From: a virus
Taxonomy: Duplodnaviria > Heunggongvirae > Uroviricota > Caudoviricetes
IMG/VR virus record: IMGVR_UViG_2541047840_000001
Strand: one strand, 5' to 3'
Length of the DNA stretch: 46,824 nucleotides
The position numbers and the translations under genes were made by a program. Below the pieces are notes generated by a model. That model saw only the letters and a list, made by a program, of their open reading frames with translations, did no database searches and was not told the origin of the DNA. This document shows positions 2,249-30,246 of this stretch, piece after piece (within the stretch, counting starts at the first letter, position 1; every line of letters begins with the position of its first letter).

Positions 2249-3239
2249 AACGCTTTTTGATGTTATATATCAGAATGTAAATATTACCGCTCATATGTCA
2301 CCTGATGTTTTGTCAATGTCTTATACAGATAATGAAGATGGTCAGGTCGATGATATTTCTATTATATTAAAAAATGATGATGGGAAATGGTCTGGAGACT
2401 GGACACCTAAAAAGGGTGATTTTATTGATTTGAGCTTTAAGCCTATAAATCAAATCGTCCTTGAGTGCGGGAAATTCCAGGTGGATGGCATAACTTGCTC
2501 TGGACCACCTTCTGTTGTTGAGGTGACTGCTGTTTCTGTTCCTGTTTCATCAGGCATTAGACGTGATTTAAAAAGTAATGCATGGGAAAAAACAACTCTT
2601 AAAGATATAGCAACTTCTATAGCTAAATTAGCTAACCTTGAACTGTTGTTTCTTATTGATGGTGATAGTAATCCATATTATGCGCGTGAAGATCAAATGG
2701 AGGAAAGCGATTTAAAATTTCTCCATCGACTTTGCCAGGATGAAGGGTTGTCGTTAAAGGTCACTGATAGCCAATTAATAATATTTGCTCAAGAGATGTT
2801 TGAGCAAAAAGATCCTATCGCTACGCTTACGTTAGGTATTGATGAGATAATCAGATATAGCTTTAGCACACAATCTACAGATTTGTATAAAAGTTGCACG
2901 TGCAAATATCGCGTACCTAAAAAAAGAAAGTCGCTTTCGTATACTTGGGTAGATCCATCCGTAGAAGAAGGGTCGAATCTTAAGATAAGAAAACTGGTAG
3001 CTAATTTAGATGAAGCAAAACGTAAGGCAAAGGCTGCTTTGCGGCTTAAAAATAGATATCAAAATACCGGATCTTTAGTATTGGTTGGAGACACCAGATT
3101 GGTAGCTGGTGTAACTATAAATCTGGACGGATTCGGTTTATTTTCTGGAAAATATCTTATATCGAAAGCTGTGCATTCAATTGGGGCTAGTGGTTATACC
3201 ACCTCGATTGATGTCCGAAGAGTAATTAATGGGTATTAA
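2238..3239 (+). CDS. Late control gene D-like tail/baseplate hub protein
   Basis: 333 aa, GTG start overlapping upstream stop; size and position match P2 gpD / Mu gp44-like proteins. Confidence 0.75.
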   Translation: MLRKTLFDVIYQNVNITAHMSPDVLSMSYTDNEDGQVDDISIILKNDDGKWSGDWTPKKGDFIDLSFKPINQIVLECGKFQVDGITCSGPPSVVEVTAVSVPVSSGIRRDLKSNAWEKTTLKDIATSIAKLANLELLFLIDGDSNPYYAREDQMEESDLKFLHRLCQDEGLSLKVTDSQLIIFAQEMFEQKDPIATLTLGIDEIIRYSFSTQSTDLYKSCTCKYRVPKKRKSLSYTWVDPSVEEGSNLKIRKLVANLDEAKRKAKAALRLKNRYQNTGSLVLVGDTRLVAGVTINLDGFGLFSGKYLISKAVHSIGASGYTTSIDVRRVINGY

Positions 3240-9282: not shown

Positions 9283-9816
9283 TCATTCTGGTTGTTCTGG
9301 AAACGTTACTGGCAGGCTGGAGGTGTCTGTGGATTCGACCTTCTGCGCATAGAGCATCCACTCGGTTAATTTTTGTTTATTCTCGTTGGAAATGATACCC
9401 AGCCGTAGCTGTGAGTCCCATAGCTGGGTTTTATCCCTGACGAGCTGTAGCAGGCTTTGCTTTTCATTTTCCGCTTGTTGCCTCTGCTCTTCCTCGGTAT
9501 AAGTTCGCTTTATCACTACGCCATCTTTGAACAACCATTTCCCCGAAATATCAGCCCGGCGATTTGCTGTAATATCAGGTAATTCAACGACGCTTGCGCC
9601 TTCCGGATTAATTGCTGAAACATCCTTTTCAATACAAATAATAACGCCGTTATGGTCATAGACCATTTTCAAAGTGTCTGGCTGGAAATTCTTTTGTTCC
9701 TCATACCAGTTTTTTCCATCATCTGAATAAAGCCATTTGATGTTAAATTGCTTTGTTAGCTGGTATTGCTCTTTTGTTTTAGGGTTGCCAGCAGTAATGT
9801 TTTTTAAGTGCATCAT
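9283..9816 (-). CDS. Alternative tail fibre assembly protein
   Basis: 177 aa paralog of 8727..9254 in inverted orientation. Confidence 0.8.
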   Translation of the reverse strand: MMHLKNITAGNPKTKEQYQLTKQFNIKWLYSDDGKNWYEEQKNFQPDTLKMVYDHNGVIICIEKDVSAINPEGASVVELPDITANRRADISGKWLFKDGVVIKRTYTEEEQRQQAENEKQSLLQLVRDKTQLWDSQLRLGIISNENKQKLTEWMLYAQKVESTDTSSLPVTFPEQPE

Positions 9817-9818
9817 CG

Positions 9819-10707
9819 TTAAATACTCCCCGCGTTATACCACGTCCCATTAATGCAATACTGAATTGGCCTTGCCTGTGTTGTATCAATTAATTTATCA
9901 CGGTTTCCGTTAACTGAACCCGTAACGACATAACCTGACCTGTCAGACCAGCCGGGGCCATTCCATGTCTGAACAGATGACAGACCGCCAAGGCGAATAC
10001 CTGTAATAAACCTTGAGTTACATTCTGCCCGCGTGTATGCACCAACATCTCCCGCAGAGGGTTTGCGGGTCGTGGTGTAAAACTCTGACCAGTCAGCCTC
10101 AAATCCATAACCATCACGCGCTGAACGATAAAAAATACCGCCGTTCTTATAATTCACACGGAACTGTACGGCAGGGCAACTCCCCGCATTCATATTGAAG
10201 TGGAGGATTAATGTCGATGCACCGCTGATATCTGCATCATAAACACCGCTATTCCAGTTCCAGCCAACAGCTTTATCATTTGCAACCCTGCTTCCTGTTT
10301 GCCCTAAAGCAAATGCAGGCTGCTGGTTTTTCGTGTTGTAGTCTCGTCGCCAGCCAGGAGCGTAAGCATCACCATGATTAATATAAGTGAATTGAGCGTT
10401 AGTAATTCCGCCACCGCTGGACGTGCTCGGCGTGGTAACGCGTATGGTCATTGCGCCGCGAGTGCCAATAACTTCCACCACAGCACCTGCAAGACAAATA
10501 TTTCCGCAACCTGTATCTGTAATGACCTTATTATTTGCATAAGCCCATGAGCCTTTGCACATCCAGTAAGGATGGTTAAATGCCCCCTGGCTCTCCAGCC
10601 ACGAAATAAATTGCGCGGTTGTCCAGACCTGACTATCGCCACCAATATTCAGCCATGCGCTATATGCGCGGCAGGCCCCAATATTTTTGGTGAAGGTATC
10701 TTTTCCC
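9819..10707 (-). CDS. Alternative tail fibre variable C-terminal segment (Sv'-like, no own start; expressed after inversion)
   Basis: Minus-strand frame is open from 10780 down to the stop at 9819; translation through the IR reads LGLQETVNQASGALQKNQNGADIP, identical to the fibre gene at the left IR; reading frames match across the crossover. Confidence 0.75.
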
Positions 10708-10780
10708 GGAATATCTGCGCCGTTCTGGTTTTTCTGTAATGCGCCAGAAGCCTGATTTACCGTTTCCTGTAAACCGAGGT
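10708..10780. repeat. 73-bp perfect inverted repeat, right copy (IRR)
   Basis: Exact reverse complement of 7726-7798. Confidence 0.85.
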
Positions 10781-10789
10781 TTTTGCGAA
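10764..10789. other. gix/hix-like recombination site (right crossover site)
   Basis: TTCCTGTAAACC-GA-GGTTTTTGCGAA, strong match to recalled gix/hix sites; central dinucleotide is inverted relative to left site. Confidence 0.65.
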
Positions 10790-10853
10790 TTGCCTCTGTG
10801 TCGTCTGAACGATATTTTTTTCCGCTTTTAGCAACAATCGCGGTTTAGAAAGT

Positions 10854-11408
10854 ATGCAATATGGTTATGCGAGGGTGTCAACTTTTGACCAGAATTTGGA
10901 ATTACAACTGGAGGCGCTCAGGAGTTCAGGATGTGACCAGATTTTTGAAGATAAAATATCCGGTGCTAAATCAAAACGACCAGGACTTGATAAGCTACTT
11001 AAGGTGTTACGGCCGGGCGATACGGTTATTGTCTGGAAGCTGGACCGAATGGGGCGTTCTCTGATTCATCTTGTTGATTTACTTAACCATTTTTTATCAA
11101 ACAACATTGAGTTTATTTCGATTACGGAAGGGATAAAAATTAGCACTTCAATTGGCCGCTTTGCCTACACGATGCTGAGTGCAGTCGCAGAGATGGAGCG
11201 GGAAAATATGATTGAAAGAACGCGTGCAGGATTGGCGGTGGCAAGGGCTAACGGCAGGATAGGAGGACGCCGCTCAAAATTGGCACCAGAGCAATGGGAA
11301 CAGATCGGAAGGCTTATTGCGAATGGTGTTTCACGTAAGCGGATAGCGATTATCTTCGATGTTACCTTATCCACGCTTTACCGCAGGTTTCCGGCTGGGA
11401 ATCATTGA
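10854..11408 (+). CDS. Serine recombinase, DNA invertase (Gin/Hin/Cin/Pin family)
   Basis: 184 aa; N-terminal YARVSTxxQ catalytic-serine motif and C-terminal HTH; sits next to a gix-like site. Confidence 0.9.
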   Translation: MQYGYARVSTFDQNLELQLEALRSSGCDQIFEDKISGAKSKRPGLDKLLKVLRPGDTVIVWKLDRMGRSLIHLVDLLNHFLSNNIEFISITEGIKISTSIGRFAYTMLSAVAEMERENMIERTRAGLAVARANGRIGGRRSKLAPEQWEQIGRLIANGVSRKRIAIIFDVTLSTLYRRFPAGNH

Positions 11409-11591
11409 CTGGAGTTAGGCCAGTAGTATGATGCTCGCAAAACGAGATCCAATTTAGATCCTTTTACTGGTGGATTATCGTTCGATCAGTGAGAGACTTC
11501 GTGCATGACCGAAAGTGTTGTGGTAGAGTTCTCTGAAAACCACGTAACGTGGTTATGATTGTGGGTGTCTGGTTGGAAAATGACCAGATAT

Positions 11592-11710
11592 GGAAACAAA
11601 AAGCCCGCAGATAAATCTGCGGGCTTCTTGCGACATCCACGGAAAACCAACAAAAACAATCCATGGGCGCCTCAACAAATCCCATTATACGTTGGTTTTC
11701 CGTGGACGCA
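11592..11710 (-). ncRNA. Candidate CopA-like antisense RNA in repA leader (prediction)
   Basis: Minus-strand intrinsic terminator (stem 11601-11626 followed by TTTTGTTTCC on minus strand) plus a 15-bp perfect inverted repeat (11637-11651 / 11691-11705) in the leader just upstream of repA ATG. Confidence 0.3.
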
Positions 11711-11721
11711 AGAGCGAACAT

Positions 11722-12570
11722 ATGGATAGACCAATGCCGTCTCTACGTTCAGCTTACGTTTGTAATTTGTCGCCGGAGTTCCAGCCTCCAAAGCACCATA
11801 CGCACAAGCTGCCGCTAGTGTTATCTGATGCTTTACAGCGCATTAATGGTCGTGATCTTACGTGTGAGGTTGCGTTCTACGTTAATCAGCCGTCAGAGCG
11901 GAAGCGCCGGATAAACGAGCATCGTCGTCGGGCGATTAATGCTGTGATTGCTGCGATTTTGCACCATGTAAACATCATTTCTAAGCGGGTTCTGGCCAGT
12001 GCTGAGGCGTTGGCTGATTTTTGCGGCCTGTCTACCGTATCCGAAGCTGGGAACAAGTCTATAACACGCTGTACAAGGGCGTTGTCGCAACTGAAAGCGT
12101 TAGGTTTTATTGATTATGAACGTCGCTGGGATCGGGTGAATAAACAGTATTGGCCAGCGAAAATAGAGATTCGTGATCAACTGCTGGAAACCGTTGGTAT
12201 TACTGAACAAGCATGGAGACGTGCGGTTAGCCAGAAACTTAATTACTTCAATGCGAAGAATAGCGAACGGCTTAAAAAAGCGATAACGGAGGCTGATTAT
12301 AAGCGTATTGTTATTCAGGAGCAGATGGAGAATGTATGGCGTCAGAGGAAGACAGCCAGAGAGATAAAGGCAAAACAGAAAGCAGCGGAGAGAGCTGCGC
12401 GTCTTGTTCAGGAAAAGGGAGAGGCCGAACTTCGTCATCAAATCACTAGAGAGGTTAGCCAGGAATTTGCTGATGGCATGTATCCTGGTGCTGACCTTGC
12501 ATATTTACGATCCCTCGTTGAGCAGCGTTATAACAGGTTAAGAAAGACCTGGAAATCACTCCAACATTAA
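11722..12570 (+). CDS. repA: Plasmid replication initiator RepA (IncFII RepA1-like)
   Basis: Translation contains SITRCTRALSQLKALGFIDYE, resembling IncFII RepA1 as recalled from memory; probable ATG at 11722 (track ORF begins 11590). Confidence 0.8.
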   Translation: MDRPMPSLRSAYVCNLSPEFQPPKHHTHKLPLVLSDALQRINGRDLTCEVAFYVNQPSERKRRINEHRRRAINAVIAAILHHVNIISKRVLASAEALADFCGLSTVSEAGNKSITRCTRALSQLKALGFIDYERRWDRVNKQYWPAKIEIRDQLLETVGITEQAWRRAVSQKLNYFNAKNSERLKKAITEADYKRIVIQEQMENVWRQRKTAREIKAKQKAAERAARLVQEKGEAELRHQITREVSQEFADGMYPGADLAYLRSLVEQRYNRLRKTWKSLQH

Positions 12571-12599
12571 CCCACCTGAATGATGAATCCGGTTTTACC

Positions 12600-12850
12600 G
12601 GAGGATTATCTACGTCGCAATAAAATATCTGTTCAAAAAACAATCTAAATTAATTTTCTCTAAACCTGAACACAGCAAAAATATCGCCTTCACAGGCATC
12701 GGCTAATAAAGTTATCCACAGTTTTGATATGTATATGCAAATGGTTTTTTATAATAGATGCACTAAACAAATAAATGCAAAATCACTTTCTTTTATTAAG
12801 ACTTTCTTTATTTAACTTACGCAGGCTTTGCCTGTGAATATGTTCGCCCT
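12600..12850. other. Putative plasmid origin region (AT-rich, DnaA box TTATCCACA at 12712-12720)
   Basis: Perfect DnaA-box 9-mer plus AT-rich tract directly downstream of repA, as in IncFII oriR. Confidence 0.5.
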
Positions 12851-13213
12851 TGCAGCGAGCTAAAGCTCGCGCCGGTTCGAGTCGCTACGCTCAAATATAC
12901 CTCCTCCGGCACTTGCCGGAGGCATGGAGCAGCCTGATCATCCTTTTCGAAACGGCACGTTTCGAACTATACAAAATCAATTTATATAAGGCCGAAATAA
13001 GGCCTACGGCCGGGCTTTGCAGGAGGAAGGGGCGAGCCTTATCAATAAACGTCGATAAATACGCACACAGTAGCCATCAGAACGCGATAAAACGTAAGAA
13101 ACATCATTTCCTATTAGACATAGAAAACTTGTCTTATACGCAATGTAGTAAATTTCTATTGCCACATAGGAAAAGATTTCCTACCATCGTAGATATAATA
13201 AATGGAGATGGTT

Positions 13214-13501
13214 ATGGATAAAGATACTGTTTTAAAAATGTTGAATCCGGCTTGTTTAAAAAAAGCGGATGAATGGGAATCTCCTACATGTGGAGAAGTT
13301 CGGGCAGTCATTGGCCTGACTGGAATGAGCGGCTCGCAGTTGGCCAAAAAACTAGGCTTAAAAGATAGTCGCAATGTTCGCAACTGGCAGATGTTAAAGG
13401 AGTCCACATCCAGATCCAGCATTCCGTATGCAGCCTGGGCGCTGCTGTGTTACTTCGCTGGGTTAGGGTTAATCTTCATTGATAACAAAACAGATGTTTG
13501 A
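13214..13501 (+). CDS. Small HTH DNA-binding protein (CII-like / XRE-like, tentative)
   Basis: ATG at 13214 preceded by GGAG; helix-turn-helix-like segment GMSGSQLAKKLGLKDSRNVRNWQ. Confidence 0.5.
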   Translation: MDKDTVLKMLNPACLKKADEWESPTCGEVRAVIGLTGMSGSQLAKKLGLKDSRNVRNWQMLKESTSRSSIPYAAWALLCYFAGLGLIFIDNKTDV

Positions 13502-14024: not shown

Positions 14025-14033
14025 GGATTGAGC

Positions 14034-14381
14034 ATGTGGACGGTACTTTTTAGCCAGCGATTTGACGACTGGCTAAATGAGCAAGAAGACGCTCTTCAGG
14101 AAAAGGTTTTGGCTGATTTGAAAAAGCTACAGGTTTACGGACCTGAGTTACCCAGGCCATATGCCGATACCGTAAAAGGTTCTCGGTACAAAAATATGAA
14201 AGAGCTTCGCGTTCAGTTTTCTGGCCGTCCGATAAGAGCCTTTTATGCGTTCGATCCGATTCGCCGGGCCATCGTTCTTTGTGCAGGAGACAAAAGTAAC
14301 GATAAACGGTTTTATGAAAAACTGGTGCGTATAGCTGAGGATGAGTTTGCAGCACATCTGAACACACTGGAGAGCAAGTAA
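14034..14381 (+). CDS. Type II toxin, HigB/RelE-family-like (toxin-first arrangement)
   Basis: About 115 aa, small basic protein; stop overlaps start of a downstream HTH antitoxin-like gene (TAATG). Confidence 0.7.
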   Translation: MWTVLFSQRFDDWLNEQEDALQEKVLADLKKLQVYGPELPRPYADTVKGSRYKNMKELRVQFSGRPIRAFYAFDPIRRAIVLCAGDKSNDKRFYEKLVRIAEDEFAAHLNTLESK

Positions 14382-14680
14382 TGAGAACATTAGATGAGGT
14401 GATTGCCAGCCGTTCACCTGAAAGCCAGGCGCGAATTAAAGAAATGGCAGATGAGATGATTCTTGAGGTCGGCTTGCAGATGATGCGTGAAGAACTCCAG
14501 TTATCACAAAAACAGGTTGCTGAGGCGATGGGTATAAGCCAGCCAGCAGTAACAAAGCTGGAGCAGCGCGGAAATGATTTAAAGCTGGCGACATTAAAGC
14601 GTTACGTTGAAGCTATGGGAGGCAAATTAAGCCTGGATGTTGAGCTTCCTACAGGAAAGCGAGTAGCGTTCCATGTCTAA
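14381..14680 (+). CDS. HTH (XRE-family) antitoxin, HigA-like
   Basis: 99 aa, HTH segment LSQKQVAEAMGISQPAVTKLE; downstream position typical of HigA. Confidence 0.7.
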   Translation: MRTLDEVIASRSPESQARIKEMADEMILEVGLQMMREELQLSQKQVAEAMGISQPAVTKLEQRGNDLKLATLKRYVEAMGGKLSLDVELPTGKRVAFHV

Positions 14681-15709: not shown

Positions 15710-15982
15710 ATGACGGGTTATGAATTGAAATTATGGCGTCGTGGGATGAACTGGACGCAGGAGCGAGCCGCCGAAGAATTTGGGATATCGTTGGCTACAT
15801 ATAAGCGATATGAGAAGGGGGAGCCGCCGAGGGTCATTGAGATGGCCATTCGCGTTCTGTCGTTTGACGATATGGTGAAGGATCTTTCACACCTTGATAA
15901 AGACGCGATTCTGTTAAGGCTGCAAACCCTTGTATGGGAAAAGGTTAAAGTGTCGTCAGAATTGGAACAAGGGATCAAATGA
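15710..15982 (+). CDS. HTH XRE-family-like transcriptional regulator
   Basis: ATG at 15710 after GAGGAGGG RBS; segment MNWTQERAAEEFGISLATYKRYEKG is HTH-like. Confidence 0.55.
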   Translation: MTGYELKLWRRGMNWTQERAAEEFGISLATYKRYEKGEPPRVIEMAIRVLSFDDMVKDLSHLDKDAILLRLQTLVWEKVKVSSELEQGIK

Positions 15983-16034
15983 TCCTTTACGGATCGTTTT
16001 ATGGTGGTGTAATGTAAGCGCCAGAAAGACAAAA

Positions 16035-18161: not shown

Positions 18162-18917
18162 GGTGATAGTTCCCTTAAAGGTTAAGGATACTCACCACCG
18201 TCTGGTTCCAATCATTGGGTGGTGAGACGTACAGGGTTGGAACTACCGGTCACCATGGAATCCGGCGAGTCTTACGACTCCCCCGCACGCCCCACCATAA
18301 TTTGGGTGTAGCAGTGCTTTACGCATAAAAAAACCGCTAACGCGGTATGCGCCATGATGATTATCGGGGTTCCAATCCCGGTCGTAGATTTTGCTACGGC
18401 TCGGAAAGTGTCCACCAATGGCGCATTCATGTCAATACGGCGGGATTTTAACAGAGACAACCACATAGCGTGGGTTTATTGGTAGGCAGAAACAAAAAAA
18501 CCGCCCTATTGAGGACGGTTCTTTCGTGCTGATCGGATTCGCGGTCCTTTCAGCATTACGTTGTTGTATAAACAACCACGCAAGCACAAGCAGCAAGTTA
18601 ATTTTACCCAAAAGGTAATAATAGTCCACTATTATGCTTCATAAAATTGTGGTTCTTGTTGTGCCTGCAAACTCACAGATTGTGGGTAGGTTACTGATTT
18701 TGTGAAAATAAACTGGTTTTTTCGTTTAATTTATTTCCTATTACTAATCTTAAAATAATCGTAAAATACCTGTGGACCTTCCCGCCGATTCGCACCCGGG
18801 CACCGACTTTAGGGGAGGATTTCCTGTTGCCGTACATGCAAGCACAAGCAGCCGTGCTTGCTCTCGCGTTGTTTTCGTCGGTGGGGATGCCGTGAAACGG
18901 CCTGTAAGGGCCATACA

Positions 18918-19040
18918 ATGAAAAAATACTGTATGTGTATTTTTATCGTTGTTACTGGGGCTTTGTTTACGCCACATGGGGAGGGTTGGAAGATTACTGA
19001 TAACGCTCTGAATGTGACGATAAACATTAGCAGCAAGTAG
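18918..19040 (+). CDS. Candidate small hydrophobic peptide (40 aa)
   Basis: ATG 18918 with AAGG RBS inside a short hairpin; translation MKKYCMCIFIVVTGALFTPHGEGWKITDNALNVTINISSK; strong terminator immediately downstream. Confidence 0.3.
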   Translation: MKKYCMCIFIVVTGALFTPHGEGWKITDNALNVTINISSK

Positions 19041-19045
19041 CGATT

Positions 19046-19068
19046 AGGCCCCTTCGGGGGCCTTTTTT
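19046..19068 (+). terminator. Rho-independent terminator
   Basis: AGGCCCC-TTCG-GGGGCCT followed by TTTTTT. Confidence 0.65.
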
Positions 19069-30170: not shown

Positions 30171-30246
30171 GGCCCCTTAGCTCAGTGGTTAGAGCAGGCG
30201 ACTCATAATCGCACGGTCATCGGTTCAAATCCGGTAGGGGCCACCA
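30171..30246 (+). tRNA. tRNA with CAU anticodon (closest to tRNA-Ile2 type; tRNA-Met not excluded)
   Basis: 7-bp acceptor stem GGCCCCT/AGGGGCC, anticodon loop CTCATAA, T-loop GGTTCAAATCC, 3' CCA encoded; 5' half matches E. coli ileX as recalled from memory. Confidence 0.8.

Follow-up and report, generated by a model that had tools for sequence, protein, structure and literature searches.

A probable phage-plasmid replicon with a predicted antisense RNA and a putative refolding switch in the repA leader

The stretch described here comprises positions 11409 to 12850 of the tailed-phage record IMGVR_UViG_2541047840_000001 (Caudoviricetes), a DNA of 46,824 nucleotides (nt) that we refer to as the window. 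It carries a replication initiator gene, repA, on the plus strand, a structured repA leader with a perfect inverted repeat, a predicted antisense RNA gene on the minus strand of that leader, and a DnaA box beside AT-rich DNA downstream of repA. A preliminary description, made from the sequence without database searches, had read the stretch as an IncFII-type replicon with CopA/CopT-like antisense control, located in an extrachromosomal prophage. In this study we followed up that reading by protein, RNA and genome searches, comparison of related loci (given below as L numbers) and RNA folding.

The repA gene occupies positions 11734 to 12570 on the plus strand and encodes an initiator of the IncFII/L-M superfamily, 278 amino acids (aa) long from ATG 11734 or 282 aa from ATG 11722. 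The open reading frame (ORF) was found at its expected place, ending at 12570, and its product matched the profile PF02387 IncFII_repA over nearly all of its length (positions 2-272 of 275, E 6.1e-44, 150.9 bits with a cutoff of 22.9) as well as NCBIfam NF040977 RepA_IncFII_LM (positions 1-266 of 266, 232.2 bits with a cutoff of 70). The strict IncFII equivalog TIGR03474 incFII_RepA was not reached (78.8 bits vs a cutoff of 446.9) and neither was PRK13750 (81.9 vs 478). By BLASTP the protein was 32% identical to the true IncFII RepA1 of locus L050 over 148 aa, half its length, and 20% identical over 107 aa to the IncL RepA of pOXA-48; with only 20% identity we rejected an assignment to IncL/M. 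The nearest RepA outside its own clade in the plasmid collection was that of pCAV1311-34, a plasmid of the pKPC_UVA01/CAV1321 type (37% over 272 aa). Judged by these profile scores and identities, RepA is a member of a distinct clade of the IncFII/IncL-M initiator superfamily and not IncFII proper, so the label "IncFII-type" holds for the superfamily and fails for the strict family. MOB-suite, consulted via PLSDB, gives the plasmids carrying this replicon no replicon type, yet types the control plasmids.

Protein searches revealed repA relatives at two levels, 80-85% identity (Salmonella, Klebsiella aerogenes and metagenomes) and 58-63% identity. Nearly all of them are 277 aa long and start at the equivalent of ATG 11734. 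When a profile built from the RepA alignment was run against the genome-contig collection, no relative was confirmed. Across the lineages selection on repA was purifying, with proportions of nonsynonymous differences (pN) of 0.09-0.28 vs proportions of synonymous differences (pS) of 0.74-0.95. RefSeq/PGAP and GenBank phage records give a longer RepA of 325-326 aa, starting at 11590 inside the antisense terminator described below. We rejected the 326-aa protein from ATG 11590: homologs at 60-85% identity lack the extension, ATG 11580 close by is variable, and indels of 1-2 nt break the upstream frames in near-identical relatives. The annotated RepA is probably over-extended by about 44 codons, the likely start being 11734 (or 11722).

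Upstream of repA the 15-bp perfect inverted repeat of the preliminary description was present at 11637-11651 and 11691-11705, and it extends to 16 bp by the pair 11636/11706. The repeat is probably a hairpin of the repA mRNA leader. The predicted long hairpin (11626 to 11713, plus strand), which we call ON, consists of a lower stem of 7 bp (11626-11632/11707-11713), the main stem (11636-11651/11691-11706) and an apical stem (11663-11667/11681-11685) that closes a loop of 13 nt (11668-11680). The leader core was sampled in 18 distinct sequence versions. Over the alignment of these 18 sequences the terminator, lower, main and apical stems were 97.8% paired, vs 33-47% with slid partners, and compensatory changes were found at four pairs, one in the terminator and three in the main stem. 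In L045 a perfect 16-bp main stem is built from different bases, and in L010 and L011, whose RepA is 60% identical, pairing is retained by unrelated arm sequences. The leader core is 80-89% identical between lineages with saturated synonymous sites (for the window against the lineages at 80-85%, pS 0.74-0.78 and pN 0.09-0.13).

The predicted antisense RNA gene lies on the minus strand from 11677 to 11595 and would give an RNA of about 83 nt with a 5' tail of about 10 nt, a stem-loop I and a terminator stem-loop II. We folded the span from its promoter to its terminator in 17 relatives plus L010 and L011. The intrinsic terminator (11595-11625, minus strand) has its stem at 11602-11611/11616-11625, with the core GCCCGCAGAT/ATCTGCGGGC, and its U-run at 11601-11595. 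The A-run 11595-11601 reads UUUUUGUU on the minus strand, and the plus-strand tail is only UUCUU, poor and not conserved. The minus-strand terminator was thus found as first described, with a proper U-tail on that strand only. Its helix was 100% paired in the 18 sequences with one compensatory pair (A-U in 13, G-C in 5), and L010 and L011 keep the terminator hairpin with a different stem sequence. A search of positions 11000-13300 against Rfam at E up to 1 returned only terminator-like partial matches (Thr_leader, CsrC and trpB), all below the gathering score; the terminator-like matches fall on the minus strand. CopA (RF00042) gave no match in the same range and at the same threshold, and the positive control L050 scored 96.6 bits.

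Stem-loop I (11637-11666, minus strand) pairs CCAUGGA with UCCGUGG around a U-rich loop of 13-18 nt and was predicted in 18 of the 18 sequences. Among its 152 pairs, 38 are G-U pairs, which correspond to C-A mismatches on the sense strand. When the segment was folded, the antisense strand gave -7.7 to -13.6 kcal/mol vs -1.2 to -5.0 kcal/mol for the sense strand. We regard this strand asymmetry as evidence for a functional minus-strand RNA.

The predicted antisense promoter (11684-11711, minus strand) combines a -35 hexamer TTGCGT (11711-11706), a spacer of 16 nt and a -10 hexamer TATAAT (11689-11684). No change in this arrangement was seen across the 8 lineages tested or among the 18 distinct sequences, and L010 and L011 have TTGCAT-18-TATAAT despite their unrelated hairpin arms. 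A TATAAT facing the terminator is also found in L005 and L039, and in the true IncFII locus the CopA promoter sits in the equivalent place. No minus-strand promoter upstream of the whole inverted repeat was conserved across the lineages. As the only conserved minus-strand promoter lies between the repeat arms, the antisense RNA should be about 83 nt long and not span the whole repeat; with the right arm forming the promoter spacer, the inverted repeat cannot lie within such an RNA.

These observations bear directly on a CopA-like model, in which an antisense RNA of about 115 nt starts upstream of the whole repeat, folds into a hairpin of 16-20 bp plus the terminator, and meets the mRNA by loop-loop kissing. 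The model gains from the folding of a 136-nt minus-strand segment into two very stable hairpins (-64.5 kcal/mol, fold z-score -8.5), from helices that suit either strand, and from a weak candidate promoter in the window, TAGAGA-17-TATGTT, with 8 of 12 consensus positions. The best promoters of the upstream zone, however, match 6-9 of 12 positions at shifting places, whereas TTGCGT-16-TATAAT between the arms is invariant. The G-U pattern favours the shorter stem-loop I formed by the left-arm complement only, and the CopA covariance model had no match. We consider the CopA-like model unlikely. Of the CopA/CopT-like architecture proposed earlier, a predicted minus-strand regulatory RNA upstream of repA is supported, and the body of that RNA is probably not formed by the 15-bp repeat. 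The expected minus-strand transcript of roughly 90-120 nt is likewise revised, the conserved promoter position predicting about 83 nt (11677 to 11595).

A second conformation of the leader was predicted from the folds. In this alternative hairpin, which we call OFF (11690-11736, plus strand), the right arm 11690-11704 pairs with 11721-11736, and the hairpin contains a GGA Shine-Dalgarno-like motif, ATG 11722 and ATG 11734. When the antisense target was blocked in the folding, the right arm paired with the start region in all five folded lineages of the window's design. The OFF hairpin was the best fold of the segment from the right arm to the start in 8 distinct lineages, with z-scores of -2.0 to -4.1. 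Four right-arm bases (positions 7, 10, 12 and 13) co-vary both with the base they pair with in the left arm and with the one they pair with in the start region. This three-way covariation is our main argument for two mutually exclusive conformations, ON and OFF, and points to a leader that could change between them.

We therefore propose the following mechanism as a model. A constitutive minus-strand RNA of about 83 nt, transcribed from a promoter inside the leader inverted repeat, would limit RepA synthesis. In free repA mRNA the arms would form the long hairpin, so that the right arm is occupied and the weak GGA motif and the start codon are available. The leader's left arm, internal loop and apical loop would each have their complement in the antisense RNA, whose U-rich loop might make first contact with the internal loop 11652-11660 and whose 5' tail might do so with the apical loop 11668-11680. 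With the left arm sequestered, the right arm would refold on 11721-11736 and bury the GGA motif together with both candidate starts. RepA translation would then fall, and with it the initiation of replication. An antisense-driven refolding switch of this kind is, in our judgement, the probable copy-number control of the replicon; we infer the existence of the RNA, its ends and the refolding from sequence comparison and predicted folds. Two other uses of the hairpins were rejected: transcription attenuation, as no U-run follows the OFF hairpin, and a pseudoknot, as inspection of the sequence around the start revealed nothing conserved that is complementary to the apical loop.

Several observations weigh against the refolding switch. 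In the ON state the lower stem pairs CGCAAGA (11707-11713) and partly buries the AAGAG that precedes ATG 11722. The GGA ribosome-binding motif is weak, and its spacing to the RepA start ranges from 7 to 12 nt across lineages. The antisense -35 hexamer matches the consensus at only 3 of 6 positions, and the promoter was consequently not picked up by a two-hexamer scan; the 5' end near 11677 is placed by the position of the -10 hexamer only. In the metagenomic loci L043 and L044, whose left arm is degenerate, the leader adopts the OFF hairpin even without any folding constraint. In L010 and L011 about 150 nt separate the right arm from repA, and the arm does not extend to the start region; the fold of L010 is without a switch. 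The switch may accordingly be specific to the clade with RepA at 80-100% identity plus L045. Finally, ATG 11722 may still have a role of its own, its position being conserved, though its frame is not.

This last point is the core of a leader-peptide model of the Tap or RepB/RepY kind. Here a peptide would start at ATG 11722, or be read in a frame that ends at TAG 11727-11729, with RepA translation coupled to it, and the antisense RNA would block translation of the leader or formation of a pseudoknot. ATG 11722 has an AAGAG 7 nt upstream and its position is kept in every lineage; a plus-strand ORF ends 5 nt before ATG 11734; and L005 (RepA 63% identical) and L039 (33%) carry PK-repBA, which is typical of such coupling. 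The frame of ATG 11722 relative to RepA, on the other hand, is variable: it is 0 in the window and L045, +1 in L002, L007 and L018, and +2 in L003, L043 and L044. Its products amount to no peptide or to 13, 46 or 114 aa, with ends 29 to 328 nt inside repA, and in the window this ATG would merely lengthen RepA by four residues. Given that frame and length are inconsistent between lineages, there is no conserved leader peptide. The ATG 11580 of the upstream frame becomes CTG, GTG or ACG in relatives, and the frame is broken by indels of 1-2 nt. Neither PK-repBA (RF01089) nor PK-repZ (RF01087) gave a match in the window at E up to 1, or in L003, L010, L011, L043 and L045 at E up to 0.1, and inspection near the start showed no conserved apical-loop complement. 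We hold the leader-peptide model to be quite unlikely.

Further upstream the leader contains features that concern transcription of repA. The strong candidate sense promoter P1 (11405-11432, plus strand) reads TTGACT-16-TATGAT, matches 10 of 12 consensus positions and overlaps the stop codon of the invertase gene; its hexamers TTGACT and TAT(G/C)AT are kept in the lineages with RepA at 80-85% and at 62%. Just downstream lies a pair of GATC (Dam) sites, 11 bp apart (11446-11460). Of 7 lineages, 6 retain the 11-bp distance, with spacer sequences that differ. The pattern GATC-N7-GATC occurs only twice in the window, here and at 15981-15995. The latter site (GATCCTTTACGGATC) is intergenic and resembles the P1-site variants of L043 and L044, having otherwise little in common with the P1 region. 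As a speculation, the GATC pairs could be SeqA/Dam sites or operators and perhaps let the phage raise repA transcription. A conserved TGnTAGAGT block could serve as a further promoter with an extended -10, P2 (TGGTAGAGT, 11521-11529, plus strand); the block TG(T/A)TG(G/A)TA(G/A)AGT was conserved in all lineages and was not picked up by the two-hexamer scan. Two further hairpins, HP1 and HP2, were predicted on the plus strand between 11538 and 11591. The stem of HP1 (11538-11554, AACCACG/CGTGGTT) is invariant and its loop variable; HP2 (11565-11591) is present in other lineages with a different sequence.

The conserved GATC pair at P1 is a point that would fit a model without any countertranscript. 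The terminator would in that case serve, or stabilise the transcripts of, the neighbouring genes, the repeat would be a protein operator, and copy number would be set by RepA autoregulation, a phage repressor or Dam/SeqA at P1. Another is that in L006, L008 and L009 a RepA paralog takes the place of the RNA leader, so that protein-based control does occur in the clade. The T-run of the terminator, however, lies on the strand opposite to both flanking genes, and a perfect, invariant TATAAT faces the terminator from about 90 nt away. There is no conserved minus-strand ORF in the region, and the indels of 1-5 nt in the variable patch described next would break any frame spanning it. The RNA covariation, with its strand-specific G-U pairs, is not what a DNA operator would produce. 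We regard this model as very improbable.

The predicted recognition loop itself is variable. A hypervariable patch at 11652-11661 corresponds to the stem-loop I loop of the predicted antisense RNA and, in the mRNA hairpin, to the internal loop; at least 9 alleles, differing by substitutions and indels of 1-5 nt, were found there in replicons whose identity over 1.8 kb is otherwise 97.6-99.4%. Diversity along the 1.7-kb replicon is highest here, at 0.18 vs an overall mean of 0.03, and truncated rows at the left alignment margin inflate that mean. The allele of the window was absent from the other sampled sequences, and none of the sampled copies shares the window's substitutions at 11674 and 11679, which fall within the apical loop or beside it. 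Loop changes of this kind alter incompatibility in other antisense-controlled replicons. Our hypothesis is that the hypervariable recognition loop offers related phage-plasmids a route to avoid incompatibility; a trivial alternative is slippage in an A-rich run.

Taken further, the leader could represent a previously undescribed copy-number switch, a three-way RNA device in which an 83-nt countertranscript closes the leader without a leader peptide, a pseudoknot or CopB. This we put forward only tentatively and consider possible rather than probable. The same holds for an extension of it, to which we would give no greater credence, in which the loop hypervariability results from escape of incompatibility between superinfecting related phages, and P1 with its GATC pair overrides the control at induction.

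Downstream of repA the layout resembles a plasmid origin. In R1 and R100 the oriR region follows the order repA, spacer, DnaA box, AT-rich RepA site and priming hairpins (G-site). In the window the spacer (12571-12711, plus strand) contains a hairpin at 12588-12602 and the motif CAAAAAACAATCT at 12634-12646, and apart from these two elements it is 40-47% identical between lineages. The same A-rich 13-mer is found in the spacer between repA and ori of the true IncFII plasmid, and by analogy the spacer may have a CIS-like role. The DnaA box TTATCCACA (12712-12720, plus strand) marks the repA-proximal edge of the origin, 142 bp after the repA stop. It is the sole perfect DnaA box in the window, which taken alone is compatible with chance (at least one box in 30 of 100 shuffles). 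Its position is conserved: of the 19 relatives checked, 13 have a perfect box 122-143 bp downstream of the repA stop, and L003 and L033 have TTATTCACA at the aligned position. The perfect DnaA box next to AT-rich DNA was thus confirmed.

The adjoining core (12721-12820) is 77-80% A+T, with repeats of the core ATGCA at 12735, 12758 and 12775 and a direct repeat CTTTCTTT(T)ATT, and is a candidate region for RepA binding and unwinding. The ATGCA repeats and their spacing recur in pCAV1311-34 at equal distance from repA. A cluster of hairpins follows between 12822 and 13025 (12822-12834, 12855-12870, 12903-12922 and 12947-12967). The stems keep their pairing when the sequence changes, GCGAGC/GCTCGC becoming GCGGAC/GTCCGC in L003 and GCGACG/CGTCGC in pCAV1311-34 (L051), and by analogy the cluster is a candidate single-strand priming signal resembling a G-site. 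Roughly 100 other enterobacterial plasmids, among them pKPC-CAV1321 and related records of 43.6 kb, contain a piece of 48 nt that is about 84% identical to 12845-12892; in pCAV1311-34, the sole case checked, it lies at equal distance from repA. This piece appears to be a shared origin or priming module. The whole block from 12712 to about 13025 was 74-78% identical between lineages vs 40-47% for the spacer. RepA would act at this origin, about 140 bp downstream of its gene, through the DnaA box, the AT-rich ATGCA core and the priming-like hairpins, and the data support a plasmid-type theta replicon with a DnaA-box origin downstream. Of the replicon limits first proposed, 11409-12850, RepA, the leader and the DnaA box fall within; as the conserved origin block runs beyond 12850, a clone ending there would truncate the origin.

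In PLSDB the 1442-bp region was found at 95-99.7% identity in 59 circular plasmids of 47-52 kb, mostly from Escherichia coli and otherwise from E. albertii, E. fergusonii, K. aerogenes and Salmonella. Among these 59 was the 48,488-bp plasmid of E. coli ATCC 25922, and a further 3 PLSDB records matched the region to 60-80%. The record NZ_CP032086.1 stands out with 94,204 bp, roughly double the common length, and with the replicon present twice, which could reflect a dimer or a faulty assembly. The phage genomes vB_YpM_39, vB_YpM_41 and vB_YpM_44, whose isolation host on record is Yersinia pestis EV76, are 98-99% identical over the replicon region. In complete E. coli genomes the region was found in 71 of 5426 (1.3%) at 82 places, all on plasmids; no chromosomal copy was among these places.

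In the ATCC 25922 plasmid record, genes for terminase, portal, capsid, tail, baseplate, tail fibres, holin and endolysin make up a full, myovirus-type set for morphogenesis and lysis, and an invertible tail-fibre segment accompanied by the invertase is present as well. For maintenance the record annotates RepA, ParA, ParB-like proteins and a HigB/Gp49-HTH pair (toxin-antitoxin), and no other replication initiator is annotated in the RefSeq record, where the gene already bears the label "plasmid replication initiator RepA". Virion genes are thus combined with a replication and partition module on an extrachromosomal circle that also occurs as phage genomes. The element is a known, common phage-plasmid. 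That the stretch is the maintenance (plasmid-type) replicon of a 48-kb myovirus-type E. coli phage-plasmid, persisting as a free circle, is a reading we favour with reasonable, not full, confidence. The idea of an extrachromosomal prophage is well supported, since the same element was met as circular plasmids of 47-50 kb and as Yersinia phage genomes, with 82 of 82 E. coli places plasmidic. In the literature searched for the Yersinia phage names, CP009073, ATCC 25922 and IncFII phage-plasmids, a scope that left most subscription journals outside, no description of the element or the replicon was found. We rejected pSLy3 as the same element, as it is a relative of SSU5.

The element reaches 1.3% of complete E. 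coli genomes, including ATCC 25922, a quality-control strain used worldwide, and is also found in Salmonella, Klebsiella, E. albertii and E. fergusonii. Since MOB-suite gives it no replicon type and the RepA annotation probably begins at the wrong codon, it could escape surveillance based on replicon typing.

Other features of the window were noted alongside. Upstream of the replicon, at 9283-11408, lies an invertible tail-fibre segment. Its minus strand carries the genes for tail-fibre C-termini and tail-fibre assembly, and a serine invertase of the Hin/Cin/Pin type adjoins them at 10854-11408 (Resolvase and HTH_7, E 2.6e-44). Downstream, 1.5 kb from the origin, a Gp49/HigB-like toxin (E 5.7e-23) and an HTH antitoxin are encoded at 14028-14680, and a tRNA-Met (CAT) gene lies at 30171-30246. 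Rfam matches elsewhere in the window were C4 antisense RNA at 18215-18302 (minus strand, 84 bits), isrK at 18327-18400 (minus strand, 65 bits) and ryfA at 18772-19068 (plus strand, 143 bits). C4, isrK and c4-a1b1 targets are also found in L003 and L006, adjoining an ORF6N/pRha antirepressor gene. The C4/isrK set suggests an immunity module of the P1/P7 immI type in a phage-plasmid other than P1.

Within the RepA clade the control module differs between loci. In L005 the gene adjoins secretion genes of the VirB4/VirB3/TrbC type and not a phage, and the leader at 5863-5989 matches PK-repBA (49 bits), its UUGGCG loop having CCGCCA as partner. L006, L008 and L009, whose RepA is 60% identical, are phage-plasmids in which an ORF of 162 aa replaces the RNA leader and overlaps the repA start (2516-3004 in both L008 and L009, 5516-6004 in L006). 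Its product is a paralog of the N-terminal winged-helix half of RepA (29% over 161 aa, E 7e-14) and may be a protein-based regulator. One initiator clade would thereby use at least three control modules, the putative RNA switch, the PK-repBA leader and the truncated RepA paralog, and it travels in two vehicles, phage and plasmid with type IV secretion genes.

Compared with IncFII, in R1 and R100 arranged as copB, copA/copT, tap, repA1, CIS and oriR, the window shares the RepA family PF02387 and the order of promoter(s), countertranscript (predicted in the window), repA, spacer and an origin with a DnaA box 140-180 bp downstream. Shared as well are the placement of the countertranscript promoter, in the window a predicted one, between the target and the repA start and the A-rich 13-mer in the spacer, and in both cases control would act post-transcriptionally. 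The IncFII control locus has a DnaA-type box, TTATCCATA, roughly 175 bp after its repA stop, where the window has its perfect box at 142 bp. The same locus has a copB coding sequence of 82 aa and a tap of 24 aa that overlaps repA, in addition to the CopA match already given. In the window no plus-strand ORF of at least 40 aa that could be CopB was found in 11409-11590, save an unconserved TTG frame from 11559, and no Tap-like leader peptide is conserved, the only conserved upstream ATG varying in frame and length. The predicted antisense RNA of the window also differs by its separate terminator hairpin, and the control predicted for it is refolding and not the block of a leader peptide.

The IncL/M plasmids (pMU604, pOXA-48) and the I-complex (IncB pMU720, IncI1 ColIb-P9) combine, as is predicted for the window, a short countertranscript with a structured leader of a PF02387-family repA. 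PK-repBA was detected at 117.7 bits in pOXA-48, and the carriers L005 (49.3 bits) and L039 (55.9 bits, RepA 33%) have the UUGGCG loop; the apical region of the window keeps a related UGGGCG. The window differs from these systems in having no leader peptide and no pseudoknot partner that could be seen on inspection. The origin of pCAV1311-34 (MOB-suite rep_cluster_1367) is similar in its distances, with ATGCAAATGG repeats, the CGCCCTTGCAGCG..CGCGCCGGTTCG hairpin with compensatory changes, and GTCGCTACGCTC. It differs by a degenerate TTATGAACA at the position of the DnaA box; the comparison covered the origin, as the leader spans the start of that record. The pKPC_UVA01/pKPC-CAV1321 type consists of mobilizable resistance plasmids and not of phages.

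Like the phage-plasmids P1 (IncY/p0111), SSU5/pHCM2 (RepFIB) and N15, the element is a temperate phage that persists outside the chromosome at low copy number, equipped with a plasmid-type replicon, ParA and a toxin-antitoxin pair. The P1 RepA with its iterons, the RepFIB of SSU5/pHCM2 and the RepA/telomerase of N15 are iteron-controlled or linear-plasmid systems, whereas the window has an initiator of the IncFII superfamily with predicted antisense-RNA control. A replicon of this type was not found in the phage-plasmid literature searched. The general picture of plasmid replication control is left unchanged by these findings. If the proposed switch is real, it would add a third antisense design for initiators of the IncFII superfamily, alongside CopA/Tap and RNAI with a pseudoknot.

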